Below, in pieces: positions 16,043-35,278 of a DNA stretch of 64,000 bases (the first letter of the stretch is position 1; each line of letters begins with the position of its first letter). Both the position numbers and the translations under genes were made by a program. The stretch is from Escherichia coli (GTDB taxonomy: Bacteria > Pseudomonadota > Gammaproteobacteria > Enterobacterales > Enterobacteriaceae). The notes under the pieces were generated by a model. The model saw nothing but the letters and a program-made list of their open reading frames with translations, ran no database searches and had not been told where the DNA came from. The DNA lies in assembly GCF_024502345.1 (NCBI RefSeq), contig NZ_JALDNN010000001.1. One strand, 5' to 3'.

Positions 16043-16306
16043 ATGTTCAACCGGAACACCAGCCTGCTTGCCGGCGCAATGACTGACGATCAGCTCAGGG
16101 ATGCGCTTGCGAAAGCTCAGCAGGCGTACATTGATTTAGCAACCGGGAGCCACGGTGTTTCGTTTTCCTATACGCAGGGAGACGGGACGCGATCAGTGTC
16201 CTATCAGCAAAGCACCCTGGCTGATCTGCTGGCCCTGATTCAACTTCTGCAGGCGCAACTGGGGATTATCTCTCGTCCCCGGAAACCAGCGAGGTTTAGA
16301 TTCTGA
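16043..16306 (+). CDS. head-tail joining protein (gpW-like)
   Basis: 87 aa, position between terminase and portal, C-terminal ..RPRKPARFRF. Confidence 0.6.
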   Translation: MFNRNTSLLAGAMTDDQLRDALAKAQQAYIDLATGSHGVSFSYTQGDGTRSVSYQQSTLADLLALIQLLQAQLGIISRPRKPARFRF

Positions 16307-17943
16307 TGAATAAAGTACAGATACTGGGCTCTGATGGGCAGCCGTTGCGACAGCAGCGTCCCTCTATGCTGGTGGGGGGGAGCCGCGTACCTTATGACGC
16401 AGCTGACTCTTTCAGCGATCAACTGGCGAACTGGCAACCCGCGCTGTGGTCCCCGGACAATGAAATTAACATTTACCGGGATCGCATCGTGTCCCGCGCA
16501 CGCGATCTGGTCCGTAATGACGGCTGGGCAAACGGTGCGGTCACACGTCTGCTGGATAATGCGGTTGGTGCCAACTTCCGCCCCATCATGAAACCCGATT
16601 ACCGTGTTCTCAGAATGATCACCGGAAACAAGGCGTTTGATGCGTCCTGGGCGGAAGAGTACGGAAAAGCACTGGACGGGCACTGGCGGACCTGGAGTAA
16701 CGATCCTGGCCGGTATTGTGATGTTGAACGAAAACTCACCGTGTCGCAGATGTTACGCCTGGGATTTCGTCACAAGCTTATTGACGGGGATGCTCTGGCC
16801 ATTCTCCAGTACAGAACTGACAGGCTTGGTCCCGGAAGAGGGCGTTACGCCACCACGGTACAGATTGTCGATCCTGACCGCCTCAGTAATCCTCAGCAGA
16901 ATTTCGATATGCCAAATGTCCGTGGTGGCGTTGAAATTGATGCGGACGGTGCGCCGGTTGCTTACCACATCAGGGAGGCCCATATCGGTGACTGGTGGAG
17001 CGGGGCTAAAACCATGACGTGGCAGCGTATCCCGCGTGAAACTGACTGGGGCCGCCCGCATGTGGTTCACGATTTTGATCATGAGCGTGGCGCGCAGCAC
17101 CGTGGTAACGGCATCCTGACTCCGGTTATTCAGCGTCTGAAAATGCTGGTGAAGTATGACCAGAGTGAGCTTGAGGCAGCAATTCTTAATGCCATATTTG
17201 CCGCTTACATTGAGTCACCCTATGACCCTGCGATGGTTCAGTCTGCCCTGGGCGAGACCTATGACGAGTCGGAGTTAGGCACTTATCAGGACGGGCGTGT
17301 TGAGTTCCATAACGATCGGCGTCTGACACTTCAGAATGGTGCCCGAATGCCCATTCTTTATCCTGGTGAGAAAATCACGACGGTTAACGCGGCGCGGCCC
17401 TACAGCAATTTTGAAGTCTTCGAATCTGCTGTTCTCCGTAATTTTTCTTCAGGAACAGGGTTGTCCCCACAGCAGGTCACCCAGGACTGGTCTGACGTTA
17501 ACTACAGTTCTGCACGCTCCTCGTTGCTGGAGGCATGGAAAACACTGACTCGCCGCCGGGACGATTTTTCTACCGGCTTCGCTCAGCCCATTCTCACCGC
17601 CTTTGTTGAAGAAGTTCACGACAATGAGGATTTACCCCTGCCCGCAGGCGCACCTGATTTTGTTGACGCCAGAGCCGCGTATTCTCGCGCGCGCTGGATG
17701 GGGCCAGGGCGCGGCTGGGTGGATCCGGTTGCAGAGAAAAAAGGCGCCATTCTTGGTCTGGATGCCGGACTTTCCACCCTCGAGATTGAGGTGGGTGAAA
17801 ACGTCGGTGAAGACTGGGAAGAAGTGCTTGATCAGCGCCAGAGAGAAATTGAGTCATGTCTTAAACGCGGATTACCGCTTCCGAGCTGGGCACAGGCTGA
17901 CCAGTTTGCGAGCCAGACCATTACCGATCCGGAGGAAAAGTGA
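16306..17943 (+). CDS. portal protein (lambda gpB-like)
   Basis: 545 aa, gene order. Confidence 0.8.
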   Translation: MNKVQILGSDGQPLRQQRPSMLVGGSRVPYDAADSFSDQLANWQPALWSPDNEINIYRDRIVSRARDLVRNDGWANGAVTRLLDNAVGANFRPIMKPDYRVLRMITGNKAFDASWAEEYGKALDGHWRTWSNDPGRYCDVERKLTVSQMLRLGFRHKLIDGDALAILQYRTDRLGPGRGRYATTVQIVDPDRLSNPQQNFDMPNVRGGVEIDADGAPVAYHIREAHIGDWWSGAKTMTWQRIPRETDWGRPHVVHDFDHERGAQHRGNGILTPVIQRLKMLVKYDQSELEAAILNAIFAAYIESPYDPAMVQSALGETYDESELGTYQDGRVEFHNDRRLTLQNGARMPILYPGEKITTVNAARPYSNFEVFESAVLRNFSSGTGLSPQQVTQDWSDVNYSSARSSLLEAWKTLTRRRDDFSTGFAQPILTAFVEEVHDNEDLPLPAGAPDFVDARAAYSRARWMGPGRGWVDPVAEKKGAILGLDAGLSTLEIEVGENVGEDWEEVLDQRQREIESCLKRGLPLPSWAQADQFASQTITDPEEK

Positions 17944-18806
17944 ATCTACCCCATCTGGCCCAGCGATTATTTAACACCCCGCTGGCGCTGCACCCGAGTA
18001 AAGCCGAAGTCATCATGGCATCCGTAATGGACCGATTTGGTATCAGTAAAATCGAATCTTCTCTTGCCATGGAGGATGACTGGTACGGATATGACGATAA
18101 CCGGGGACGTGAATCCCGTAGTGATCCGGGTTATGACAATGTGCTGGGTGTCGCCGTCATCCCGATATGCGGAACGCTGGTGCAAAAACTGGGCAGTCTG
18201 CGTCCGTACAGTGGAATGACAGGGTATGACGGCATTCGTCAGGCGTTTCTTACTGCGATGGAAGATCCCGACATTTCGGGCATTTGCCTGGATATCGACT
18301 CACCCGGCGGCGAGGTCGCTGGATGCTTCGATCTGGTTGATGTCATTTACGGCTCCCGGGGGAAAAAGCCTATCCATGCCATTCTGACGGAAAGCGCTTA
18401 TTCCGCTGCGTATGCCATTGCCAGTGCAGCGGACCGGATTTCTGTTCCGCGCACCGGCGGAGTGGGTTCTGTGGGTGTGATCACCATGCACCTTGACTGG
18501 ACGCAGCGGATTAAAGATGACGGTCTTAAAGTTACGATCATCACCTATGGATCCCGCAAGGCTGAAGGTTCGCCGCTGAGAGAGTTGTCAGATGAAGCTC
18601 TGGCCGCCATCCAGCAGGACATTAACACCATGGGCGAATTGTTTGTGAACACTGTTGCCAGAAACCGGGGGATTAGCGCAAAGGTTATAAAAAGTACCCA
18701 GGCCGCCTGTTTTATGGCTGCTGATGGCGTTGAAATTGGACTGGCTGATGAGGTGTGTCCTCCTGACGCTGCGTTCAAAAACTTACTTGAAAAAACAGGA
18801 GCCTGA
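17940..18806 (+). CDS. head maturation protease (S49/ClpP-like)
   Basis: 288 aa, gene order after portal. Confidence 0.7.
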   Translation: MNLPHLAQRLFNTPLALHPSKAEVIMASVMDRFGISKIESSLAMEDDWYGYDDNRGRESRSDPGYDNVLGVAVIPICGTLVQKLGSLRPYSGMTGYDGIRQAFLTAMEDPDISGICLDIDSPGGEVAGCFDLVDVIYGSRGKKPIHAILTESAYSAAYAIASAADRISVPRTGGVGSVGVITMHLDWTQRIKDDGLKVTIITYGSRKAEGSPLRELSDEALAAIQQDINTMGELFVNTVARNRGISAKVIKSTQAACFMAADGVEIGLADEVCPPDAAFKNLLEKTGA

Positions 18807-18807
18807 A

Positions 18808-19398
18808 ATGGCAAAGAAAAAGACGTTTAGTTTTGCTCACCTCATTGGTCTTGGCCCTTCCGCTTCTGAGGAAGAAGAGGATAAAAAAGCCAAAAAAGCG
18901 AAAGCCCGTCGCGCGGAAGAGGACGAGCGCGAAGATGATGCCGATGATGATGAGCGCGACGACGACGCGGAAGAAGACGAACGCGACGATGATGCTGAAG
19001 ATGACGGCGATGATCCGGATGCGTCAGAAGATGATGATTCTGAAGACGACGGCGACGACGATCGCAAAGAGAGTAAGGCGGTAAAAAATGCACGCGCTGC
19101 TGAGCGTAAACGCTGCGCCCGTATTTTCGGCAGTAAGCATGCAGCTGCGAATCCTTCACTGGCCGCGTCACTGGCTTTCAATACCGGGATGAGTTCTGCG
19201 GCAGCAATTAATGTCCTAGCCTCTTCGGCTCCGGCCGCAGCCGCATCTCAGCCATCCCGTAAACGCTCTCTCGATCAGCGTATGCAGGAAAGCCACCAGG
19301 TCCGGCTTAATCCGGATAGCGGACAGAAAGAGACCGGAAAGTCTGCGCTGGTAAGTAAAATGACCGGCCTCTACAACTCCACAAGAGGAGAGAAATAA
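18808..19398 (+). CDS. putative scaffolding protein with long acidic low-complexity tract
   Basis: 196 aa; SD aggagc; ~70-residue run of D/E (DDADDDERDDDAEEDERDDDAEDDGDD...). Confidence 0.6.
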   Translation: MAKKKTFSFAHLIGLGPSASEEEEDKKAKKAKARRAEEDEREDDADDDERDDDAEEDERDDDAEDDGDDPDASEDDDSEDDGDDDRKESKAVKNARAAERKRCARIFGSKHAAANPSLAASLAFNTGMSSAAAINVLASSAPAAAASQPSRKRSLDQRMQESHQVRLNPDSGQKETGKSALVSKMTGLYNSTRGEK

Positions 19399-19802
19399 TG
19401 GATCAGTTTGGTCAGAATGCGTTTGCGCCTGGCATGAAGAGCGCGCTGTTTGTTCCGGATCAGCTTGTCGCTGGCACGCTCCAGCTGGTGACTGACACCG
19501 GGATCATTACGGGCGGTGCCTTTAAGCGTGGTACTGTCCTGGGCCTGGTGGCTGCCAGCGGGAAATACACGCAATGTGTGAAAACGGCTGAAGATGGCAG
19601 TCAGTTACCCGTTGCTATTCTGGTTGATGATGTTGATGCATCGTCTTCCGATCAGAACGGCGGCCTGTATCTGATGGGGGAATTCAACCAGCACCGAATT
19701 ATTTTTGATAACTCCTGGACGACCGCTGACCTGAAAAAAGCGCTCCGACCGCTGGCTATCTTCCTGAAAGACAGTGACCAGGCACCTGTAACCACCTCCT
19801 GA
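19398..19802 (+). CDS. head decoration protein (gpD-like)
   Basis: 134 aa, gene order immediately before major capsid. Confidence 0.7.
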   Translation: MDQFGQNAFAPGMKSALFVPDQLVAGTLQLVTDTGIITGGAFKRGTVLGLVAASGKYTQCVKTAEDGSQLPVAILVDDVDASSSDQNGGLYLMGEFNQHRIIFDNSWTTADLKKALRPLAIFLKDSDQAPVTTS

Positions 19803-19899: not shown

Positions 19900-20949
19900 A
19901 TGGAAAATATTTTTGATACCAGCGTGCTGGTGCAGGTTGTTCCTAACCTGAAAACCAGTCAGAACTGGCTGCTCGATCGCTTCTTCCCGAATGTCGTGAC
20001 TTACGAGACTGAAGAAGTGGCGATTGATGTTGATGTCGGCCTGCGTCGTATGGCGCCGTTCGTCTCCCCGCTGGTGGAAGGTAAGCTGGTCGAATCCCGT
20101 AAATACCAGACCAATACCTTCAAACCGGCATACATCAAAGATAAGCGCGCGCCGGACCTGCGCAAACCTATCCGCCGCCAGATTGGTGAGCGTATTGGCG
20201 GGGAATATACCGCTGCCGAGCGCGAAATGCTGAACCTTCAGTTTGAAATGACTGACCAGATTGACATGATCAACCGTCGTCTGGAATGGATGGCGGCGAG
20301 TGCGCTGGTGTCTGGGACCGTAACCGTCGCCGGGGAGGGCTATGAAACTAAGGTGGTGGATTTCGGGCGTGCTTCGGATCTGACCATCACTCTTAGCGGC
20401 TCGGATAAATGGCCACTGACCGTTGCAGCTGGCGCTACCAATACCCAGCCATCAGATGACATTGAAATCTGGCAGACTACTTTCCTGAAAGAGTCCGGCT
20501 CTGTCGCCACGGATCTGGTCTTTACGAATAAGTCATGGCGTGCATTCCGACTGGATACCACCATCAAGGATAACGCCATTACATTCCCGGCGCTGAGCCC
20601 GTTTGGTAACCAGATTAACGCCGGCCCACAGGTAATGAAGGGCGCAATTTATAAAGGGCGCTGGGGTAACTTTGACCTCTGGTTATATAACGACTGGTTT
20701 ATTGACCCGCTGGACAACGTCGAGAAGCCTATGATCCCCGATGGCGCTGTCATTATGAGTGGTGCCGATCTGATGGGTACCCGCGCCTTTGGCGTTATCC
20801 TGGACCCGGCTTTCAACTACGGTCCGCTGGCTTATGCGCCAAAATCCTGGGTGAAAGAAGATCCAGCCCAGCGTCTTATCCTGATGCAATCCTCCCCGCT
20901 GGTAATTCCGAGCCGGGTAAATGCATCCCTCTGCGCAACGGTGGTCTGA
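19900..20949 (+). CDS. major capsid protein (lambda gpE-like)
   Basis: 349 aa from MENIFDTSVLVQVVPNL; gene order. Confidence 0.8.
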   Translation: MENIFDTSVLVQVVPNLKTSQNWLLDRFFPNVVTYETEEVAIDVDVGLRRMAPFVSPLVEGKLVESRKYQTNTFKPAYIKDKRAPDLRKPIRRQIGERIGGEYTAAEREMLNLQFEMTDQIDMINRRLEWMAASALVSGTVTVAGEGYETKVVDFGRASDLTITLSGSDKWPLTVAAGATNTQPSDDIEIWQTTFLKESGSVATDLVFTNKSWRAFRLDTTIKDNAITFPALSPFGNQINAGPQVMKGAIYKGRWGNFDLWLYNDWFIDPLDNVEKPMIPDGAVIMSGADLMGTRAFGVILDPAFNYGPLAYAPKSWVKEDPAQRLILMQSSPLVIPSRVNASLCATVV

Positions 20950-20950
20950 T

Positions 20951-21331
20951 ATGGCAAAACAACCTAATACCGGGCTGGCTGATGATCTGAATGCAGAAGG
21001 ATCTGCCAAAGACGGCCTGAGCGTTGACAACCTGAATGCTGGCGATAACACCCAGGAAAAACAGCCTTTGAGCAAAACAGATGATGCCGAATTGTCTGTT
21101 GATGACGATGGTGGTGACGAAAAATCCGGAGACACTGAATCGCAGGAGTATGTGGTGTTGAAAGGGAATTGCATTCGTCATGACGGGGAGATGTACCGCG
21201 AAAATATGCGCATCCCTGTAACCGGCAAAGATGCTGAGCGTCTTCTGCAGTCCGGCGTTATTGCTGATGTTGATGTGCTTCGTAAGCGAGTTCTTGCTTC
21301 TCAGCCATCAGTTTCAGTTACGACAGGGTAA
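20951..21331 (+). CDS. hypothetical head-module protein
   Basis: 126 aa, acidic N-terminal half. Confidence 0.5.
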   Translation: MAKQPNTGLADDLNAEGSAKDGLSVDNLNAGDNTQEKQPLSKTDDAELSVDDDGGDEKSGDTESQEYVVLKGNCIRHDGEMYRENMRIPVTGKDAERLLQSGVIADVDVLRKRVLASQPSVSVTTG

Positions 21332-35201: not shown

Positions 35202-35278
35202 TGGTCGGCACGAGAGGATTTGAACCTCCGACCCCCGACACCCCATGACGGTGCGCTACCAGGCTGCGCTACGTGCCG
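35202..35278 (-). tRNA. proL: tRNA-Pro
   Basis: 77 nt; reverse complement reads CGGCACGTAGCGCAGCCTGGTAGCGCACCGTCATGGGGTGTCGGGGGTCGGAGGTTCAAATCCTCTCGTGCCGACCA. Confidence 0.95.

Follow-up and report, generated by a model that had tools for sequence, protein, structure and literature searches.

Why does a protein encoded in the head gene module of an Escherichia coli prophage carry, in its middle, a segment made up mostly of aspartate and glutamate, and what might such a segment do? The question was raised by the window analysed here, a stretch of 64,000 nucleotides from E. coli contig NZ_JALDNN010000001.1, for which a first-pass annotation, drawn up from the letters alone, had described a long acidic low-complexity tract of about 70 residues in a putative scaffolding protein. 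The tract is indeed present. The peptide quoted at the time, DDADDDERDDDAEEDERDDDAEDDGDDPDASEDDDSEDDGDDD, corresponds to residues 43–85 of a 196-aa open reading frame on the plus strand (ATG at 18808, stop codon at 19396–19398; Table 1), and the hyper-acidic core, spanning 52 residues (aa 37–88), contains 38 D/E, 4 R and 1 K, for a net charge of −33. The length of about 70 residues does not hold for this core and is reached only when the mixed-charge preface EEEEDKKAKKAKARRA (aa 21–36), which lies directly ahead of it, is counted in (aa 21–90, nt 18868–19077). When all stop-free segments of 52 aa were scored in the six frames of the 64-kb window, the tract reached 38 D/E and the next locus 16, against a background of 4.4 on average (SD 3.0); its acidity is thus far beyond chance, and it is the most acidic stretch of the window by a wide margin.

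The underlying DNA is rich in repetitive GAN codons, with GAT (15), GAC (11), GAA (8) and GAG (4) accounting for 38 of the 52, and the coding strand of the tract is 69% purine. TRF resolves an imperfect tandem repeat with a unit of nine codons and 76% matches, and a separate repeat search recovered seven in-register copies across the tract, the best pair being 87% identical and 54 nt apart. Two further open reading frames at this place, a Ser-rich one on the opposite strand (18837–19181) and one in the +2 frame (18833–19084), are shadows of the GAN repeat.

Repetitive DNA of this kind might have been collapsed or expanded during sequencing or assembly, the scenario that the first-pass annotation itself had named as fatal to its claim. 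There are signs of such trouble among the relatives, where a metagenome scaffold (L007) has a run of Ns exactly at the tract and the shortest tract variant comes from a contig at 0.5x coverage. For the window, however, assembly error is excluded because finished E. coli chromosomes carry the identical region: the gene was found in complete E. coli genomes, and in 14 independently finished ones, those at 100% identity among the matches listed, the tract has the same length and sequence, so that we regard the chance of an artefact as negligible. The gene measures 591 nt in all 30 copies from complete E. coli genomes that are at least 98.6% identical to it, and the tract is thus stable on short time scales; the prophage itself is present in 57–58 of 5,426 complete genomes.

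Table 1. Coordinates of the acidic protein gene, its parts and its neighbours in the window
Feature	Position (nt)	Strand	Evidence
Portal protein, lambda family	16306..17943	+	PF05136, E 6.6e-100; phrog_21
S49 (SppA/ClpP-fold) head maturation protease, 288 aa	17940..18806	+	PF01343, E 1.6e-27; phrog_53 positions 6-290 of 583
Shine-Dalgarno sequence AGGAG, 6 nt ahead of ATG 18808	18797..18801	+	Read from the sequence
Gene of the 196-aa acidic protein, putative Nu3-like scaffold	18808..19398	+	RefSeq 'hypothetical protein', WP_001472856.1; phrog_6382
N-terminal block, aa 1-36, net +5	18808..18915	+	Motif conservation, charge
Acidic tract, aa 37-88	18916..19071	+	Composition, charge, pLDDT, run-length test
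27-bp tandem repeat, 3.4 copies; substrate for in-frame deletion/duplication	18916..19006	+	TRF, repeat search, deletion junctions in relatives
Basic helical C-domain, aa 89-196, net +12, pI 11	19072..19395	+	AF2, hhalign, BLASTP, charge
Head decoration protein, lambda D family	19398..19802	+	PF02924, E 3.2e-20
Major capsid protein, lambda E family, RefSeq start	19900..20949	+	PF03864, E 2.4e-60; RefSeq annotation

The prophage in the window combines a lambda-type head module with a contractile tail that shows Mu-like features (genes of the DUF2635/Mup38 and sheath/Mup39 types). The local order is TerL, W, portal, S49 protease, acidic ORF, decoration protein D and capsid protein E. This synteny is common to the phages phiNP and BZS1, and relatives of the acidic protein that are only 33–43% identical to it (L005 and L006) have exactly the same neighbours. 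The protease shares 36% identity with residues 7–283 of lambda gpC and ends where gpC runs on into Nu3; to judge from this alignment, it corresponds to the protease domain of gpC only, without the Nu3 part. Its stop codon (TGA, 18804–18806) precedes the start of the acidic ORF by a single base (TGAaATG), and the ATG of the decoration gene in turn overlaps the stop codon of the acidic ORF (TAATG).

Relative to the protease, the acidic ORF lies in the +1 frame, which is open for 39 codons upstream, and we considered that the true product might be a protease–scaffold fusion that recreates the lambda C/Nu3 arrangement, arising through a +1 frameshift or through slippage of transcription at the A6 run GAAAAAAC (18789–18796). 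A database protein of 306 aa (P0002) is exactly such a fusion, but it is one sequence, from a 1.2-kb read-assembly contig, and its simplest reading is a homopolymer indel. The frame upstream is shut four codons (phiNP) and one codon (BZS1) ahead of the ATG, and both phages lack the A-run, whereas the AGGAG, together with its spacing, is kept in both, pointing to an independent start at the ATG. As the two phages share neither the open frame nor the A-run, we rejected this candidate, which we rate as most improbable.

What, then, is the product of the acidic ORF? Searches of Pfam and NCBIfam returned no family for it, and matches to Pfam Nop14 and CDC45 (below the gathering scores) and to Toc34 in the PDB were set aside as compositional, each reflecting an acidic tract in the other protein. 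Over its full length, the protein matches phrog_6382, a family of unknown function (E = 3.5e-77), and, at lower significance, positions 298–463 of the 583 in phrog_53 (E = 1.4e-6), colinear with the match of the protease to positions 6–290 of the same family. Among 86 diverse relatives, all match phrog_6382, 82 match phrog_17040 and 34 match phrog_53, the latter two families both being annotated as 'head maturation protease'. A direct BLASTP comparison with lambda Nu3 gave a weak but colinear alignment (30% identity over 69 aa, E = 0.061). Profile comparisons with hhalign pointed the same way: the profile of the 86 relatives aligned with residues 346–422 of lambda gpC (E = 1.1e-5, 82% probability), the profile of the C-domain without the acidic tract did so as well (E = 4.8e-5, 68% probability), and the C-domain aligned with a profile of the Nu3 family (E = 2e-5, 77% probability) that was shallow at eight sequences, a search with the lambda Nu3 C-terminus having returned mostly fragments. 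These probabilities of 68–82% fall short of the 90–95% usually taken as the level of confidence in HH comparisons. The C-domain and gpC have in common the pattern AE(R/N)xR..I(F/L)......(A/G)R...A..LA.T.GM(S/T)...A..(I/V)L....P....LD(Q/R)(R/L)M. Structure searches gave no match to any known scaffolding protein, and a search of the literature for scaffolds with acidic tracts brought up no work on the phrog_6382 family itself. Because of the position of the gene, the remote similarity of the C-domain to Nu3 and the gene order kept in distant relatives, the acidic ORF is likely, though unproven, to be a stand-alone equivalent of the lambda Nu3 scaffold. The 'putative scaffolding protein' of the first-pass annotation thus finds support in where the gene lies and in distant homology rather than in experiments.

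Within the protein, charge is strongly segregated into three blocks, of +5 (aa 1–36), −33 (aa 37–88) and +12 (aa 89–196), and the pI of the whole is 4.67, compared with 4.53 for lambda Nu3. The N-terminal block opens with the motif F-x-F-A-H-L-(I/L/M)-G (aa 7–14, nt 18826–18849), in which no change is seen at F9, H11 or G14 across 52 homologs, and conservation reaches 90% or more at F9, H11, L12 and G14 among the 86 diverse representatives; the motif is followed by EEEED and then by the basic patch KKAKKAKARRA. The AlphaFold2 (AF2) model assigns a confident three-helix core to aa 90–140 of the C-domain, with pLDDT of 90–97, and further helices to aa 155–165 and 178–193. Over most of aa 14–84, by contrast, pLDDT is below 50, so that, on the disorder check proposed by the first-pass annotation, the acidic tract is predicted to be disordered.

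The family to which this protein belongs is large, comprising 836 clusters at 50% identity (E ≤ 1e-3) and 345 IMG/VR contigs, with prophages in Escherichia, Klebsiella, Enterobacter, Citrobacter, Raoultella, Pectobacterium, Serratia and Edwardsiella. Among 50,697 phage genomes, tblastn found the gene only in the cultured phages phiNP of Citrobacter and BZS1 of Serratia; a tblastn search of the same genomes with the C-domain alone (E 0.05) added nothing to these two, and megablast of the region against them gave no match. We aligned 86 representatives, 30–61% identical, that had been collected with a query containing the tract and are therefore biased towards acid-bearing matches. In this set, the segment aligned to aa 17–94, that is, the tract with its basic preface, is 63–112 aa long and 35–60% D/E, its net charge lies between −11 and −33 in every one of the 86, and it contains a median of two hydrophobic residues; the median charge of the C-domain is +8. 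A second homolog search, with the C-domain as query, recovered close relatives only. IMG/VR was also scanned by the C-domain pattern alone, and 80 loci were kept; in this unbiased sample, which spans 57–100% identity and thus reaches down only to 57%, an acidic tract is present in all 80 loci (49 distinct sequences). As the first-pass annotation had anticipated for a comparison among related prophages, the length of the tract varies, from 36 to 64 aa in the 75 complete genes of this sample, with a median of 52 and most values at 48–55. The repeat units differ by lineage, with EDDERDDDA, EEEEEEETA, EDPENDPDA and DDDKDPDAE among those observed. Since acidity is kept while the sequence drifts, the comparison argues for selection on composition rather than on sequence.

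The expectation that the tract would be prone to slippage and length variation is likewise supported, with tracts of 16–64 aa in relatives overall. C-domains that are 100% identical are paired with tracts of 16, 34, 37, 44 and 52 residues, and comparison at the DNA level uncovered in-frame deletions of 45, 54 and 108 nt with direct repeats at their ends and identical flanks, although the 108-nt variant comes from the contig at 0.5x coverage and may be an artefact. The changes in length are recent and repeat-mediated. Two homologs of 104 aa that looked like truncated, frameshifted alleles were discarded as such: in one, the truncation is a gap of Ns in the scaffold, and the other is an intact gene. 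The latter had been shortened by a spurious antisense gene call. The tract, in practice, breaks metagenome scaffolds and misleads gene callers. A test for cleavage-like motifs in the 86 members returned 43 occurrences of DPDA against 7.6 expected, yet in only 23 of the 86, and [DE]A[DE] was not enriched.

A further property of the tract is that its acidic residues are regularly punctuated. The longest unbroken D/E run is 4, compared with a mean of 9.3 in shuffled versions, none of 1,000 shuffles being so low, and in the family D/E runs are shorter than expected in 55 of 73 tracts (Wilcoxon p ~1e-5), a statistic that is only indicative, the sequences being related and internally repetitive. [quoted passage not shown] Both the punctuation and the lead of 36 residues ahead of the tract may help to keep it translatable.

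The reading we favour, with a probability of roughly 0.55, is that a stand-alone counterpart of the Nu3 scaffold, in a prophage with a lambda-type head, has in the tract its central linker, disordered and polyanionic. The basic helical C-domain would presumably bind the capsid protein, the portal or other copies of the scaffold, and the procapsid would be filled by hundreds of copies of the protein. Their unfolded acidic linkers, repelling one another, would keep the protein soluble and extended, and might at the same time shield the basic C-domain from nucleic acid. Upon DNA packaging or cutting by the S49 protease, charge repulsion and lack of structure would then help the scaffold or its fragments to leave the head. 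We infer this electrostatic mode of exit by analogy with the scaffold of P22, the acidic and disordered terminus of which has been suggested to act in this way.

Several other readings have to be set against this one. The tract could be a tolerated, slippage-driven expansion, in which the linker needs only flexibility and length, and its acidity, rather than being selected, follows from a GAN-rich repeat that chanced to expand. The wide range of lengths (16–64 aa), the deletions of 15–36 residues in otherwise identical genes, the want of conservation in the sequence of the tract and the fact that the linker of lambda Nu3 is not strongly acidic are all in keeping with this idea. However, unrelated repeat units in separate lineages have all remained acidic and nearly free of hydrophobic residues, with a net charge of −11 or lower in 86 of 86; the 80 relatives selected by their C-domain have an acidic tract without exception; and for a neutral repeat the length is fairly tight around its median of 52. 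On balance, expansion by slippage alone seems unlikely. We give even less credit, without dismissing the idea, to a protein acting as a 'blocky' polyampholyte, composed of a basic patch, a regularly punctuated polyanion and a basic helical domain, in which the tract would attach to the inside of the capsid or to basic domains on adjacent copies and so drive condensation of the core by charge, the incoming DNA would compete for the basic surfaces, and the D/E punctuation would have been selected for translatability in E. coli. Were this distinctly unlikely reading true, the tract would be a built-in surrogate of DNA, the displacement of which triggers release of the scaffold.

Two more proposals depart further from the notion of a linker. 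The tract might throttle, through IRD that depends on Mg2+ or on YbiT/bL31, the synthesis of the scaffold and of the decoration gene coupled to it; IRD on poly-D/E is established in E. coli (PMC11162784; bioRxiv 10.1101/2021.02.02.429294), and the overlap between the acidic ORF and the start of the decoration gene would provide the coupling. But the tract begins at residue 37, where IRD sequences would be mostly cryptic, its short D/E runs, in a segment that is 73% D/E, look like avoidance rather than use of IRD, and a scaffold is required in high copy number, making regulation of this kind very unlikely. Still harder to credit is that the protein or acidic peptides derived from it stay in the head and are injected with the DNA, to serve as a DNA-mimic decoy for DNA-binding defences of the host or as an internal counter-ion, a role close to the DNA-mimic or charge-balancing segment floated in the first-pass annotation. 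The extreme charge density of the tract would suit such a function. Unlike folded DNA mimics of the Ocr/ArdA type, however, the tract is predicted to be disordered, searches of BFVD and the PDB found no fold match to structured DNA mimics, and both synteny and homology indicate a role in assembly. In addition, mass spectrometry of BZS1 virions detected the decoration protein p07 and the capsid protein p08 and not the homolog p06 (PMC7556043). This absence would also suit a scaffold, but it carries little weight, as the portal escaped detection too.

If the tract is indeed the linker of a Nu3-like scaffold, a probable function can be proposed for a widespread family that is annotated as 'hypothetical protein'. 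The family would also provide a natural series of scaffolds in which the length of the acidic linker and the type of repeat vary while charge is kept, and phiNP and BZS1 are cultured phages in which the effects of scaffold charge and disorder on assembly and exit could be studied.

Among known systems, lambda offers a close parallel. The head module is the same (portal B, S49 protease C, decoration D and capsid E), Nu3 occupies the same place ahead of D, and the C-terminal part of Nu3 (gpC residues 346–422) is what aligns with the helical C-domain of the phrog_6382 family; the conserved N-terminal FAHL(L/I)G motif of the family, on the other hand, has no alignment to lambda. Nu3 is nested in-frame in the protease gene, where it is made by internal initiation and shares its C-terminus with the protease, whereas the putative scaffold described here has a gene to itself, which lies in the +1 frame and is served by a separate ribosome-binding site. 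The two linkers differ as well: that of lambda is rich in Ser, Thr, Ala and Gln and mildly acidic, whereas here the charge is packed into a 52-aa tract between strongly basic blocks, and because the lambda linker is only mildly acidic, scaffolds in general can evidently function without a hyper-acidic tract. Lambda Nu3 itself is an established scaffold; its binding partners are B, C and E, of which C also degrades it (PMC3224144).

The core proteins gp22, gp67 and gp68 of T4, degraded by gp21, resemble the present case in forming an internal core that is cut by a protease, although the proteins and the protease family are unrelated. The peptides derived from the T4 core are acidic, and some of the acidic internal peptides stay in the head. 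Cutting of the core proteins to small peptides, which exit, frees room for the DNA (PMC9958956).

For the charge pattern, the nearest likeness is with the scaffolding protein gp8 of P22, which also joins an acidic disordered segment to a basic helical C-terminal domain, the disorder being predicted here and, for the acidic N-terminus of gp8 in procapsids, observed by NMR (bioRxiv 10.1101/539965). Acidity and disorder of gp8 have been linked to its exit during DNA packaging (bioRxiv 10.1101/539965). The acidic part of the P22 protein consists of its first 40 residues and is much milder than the tract described here, and we detected no sequence or fold similarity to gp8, including its coat-binding helix-turn-helix. 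The P22 scaffold, moreover, leaves the head intact and is recycled, with no protease involved, whereas the prophage in the window encodes a head protease, so that degradation would be expected. Taken together, the protein is best seen as a scaffold of the Nu3 type in which an acidic, disordered segment like that of P22 has been carried to an extreme, an incremental variation on known scaffolds that involves no new principle.

The acidic tract of the putative scaffold gene (18808-19398) damages the public record of its relatives, through N gaps, spurious antisense calls and shortened genes. In the relative on one metagenome scaffold (L007:1340-1830), a run of Ns falls exactly within the acidic tract, and in a Klebsiella assembly (L008:1220-1830) the Ser-rich antisense shadow ORF is annotated as a gene, with the true gene shortened to 104 aa. 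Several database 'hypothetical proteins' of 104 aa resemble similarly truncated products, and for one of these both inspected contigs (n = 2) show such artefacts. The database also holds a single protein of 306 aa (P0002), encoded on a 1.2-kb read-assembly contig, in which the C-terminus of the protease is joined to the acidic protein. This fusion matches the expected product of a one-base deletion at the A6 run in the 3' end of the protease gene. Given that the cultured phages phiNP (Citrobacter) and BZS1 (Serratia), which encode homologs of the acidic protein, preserve neither this run nor the open frame upstream, the fusion probably reflects a homopolymer error.

Coordinates of the features (window positions unless prefixed L001, the prophage copy in NZ_AP021894.1)
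Feature	Position	Strand	Remarks
A6 run, GAAAAAAC	18789-18796		3' end of protease gene
Ser-rich antisense shadow ORF of the acidic tract	18837-19181	-	
DPDA in the tract	19014-19025		
ORF directly 3' of the major capsid gene	20951-21331	+	126 aa from RefSeq start, pI 4.4
tRNA-Pro (GGG)	35202-35278	-	just past tail-fibre region
'SDH family Clp fold serine proteinase'	L001:10438-11337		RefSeq annotation; not mapped in the window

The protease stop and the putative scaffold start abut (TGAaATG, 18804-18810), and the scaffold stop overlaps the start of the decoration gene (TAATG, 19396-19400), with a purine-rich, Shine-Dalgarno-like stretch upstream of both starts, suggesting that the three genes are translationally coupled. 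The head module encodes a second acidic protein, the product of the ORF following the major capsid gene, with an acidic N-terminal half (16 D/E in a 52-residue stretch, the second-highest D/E richness in the window). It belongs to PHROG 24496, annotated as 'unknown function', and had no match in Pfam or NCBIfam. Outside the head module, the prophage has a second Clp-fold protease, known from the RefSeq annotation of the NZ_AP021894.1 copy, where its gene is flanked by that of antiterminator Q on one side and by the holin genes on the other.

The tRNA-Pro gene, the only tRNA found by ARAGORN in the whole window, is a possible attachment site for the prophage. The NZ_AP021894.1 copy, identical over the 1.9-kb protease-to-decoration region, instead adjoins yciI/tonB, and its early region includes a RefSeq-annotated 'tRNA-Ile' of 92 nt (L001:6044-6135). 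Considering this annotation against the single tRNA of the window, the two copies may differ outside the head module.

Across the 86 diverse family representatives of alignment A2, the motif D-P-D-A recurs in the acidic linkers of distant relatives, where it often forms the core of the repeat unit; PDA was observed 43 times, versus 7.6 expected from shuffles, in the linkers of 23 of the 86 members. D-P-D-A might represent a short functional motif, a cleavage site or merely a favoured repeat seed. In the Serratia/BZS1 branch (L003:3710-4306 and several IMG/VR relatives), the basic patch KEKGKKAKSRRAEE occurs twice and an acidic block follows each copy, indicating that the whole basic plus acidic charge module is duplicated, rather than the acidic repeat alone.
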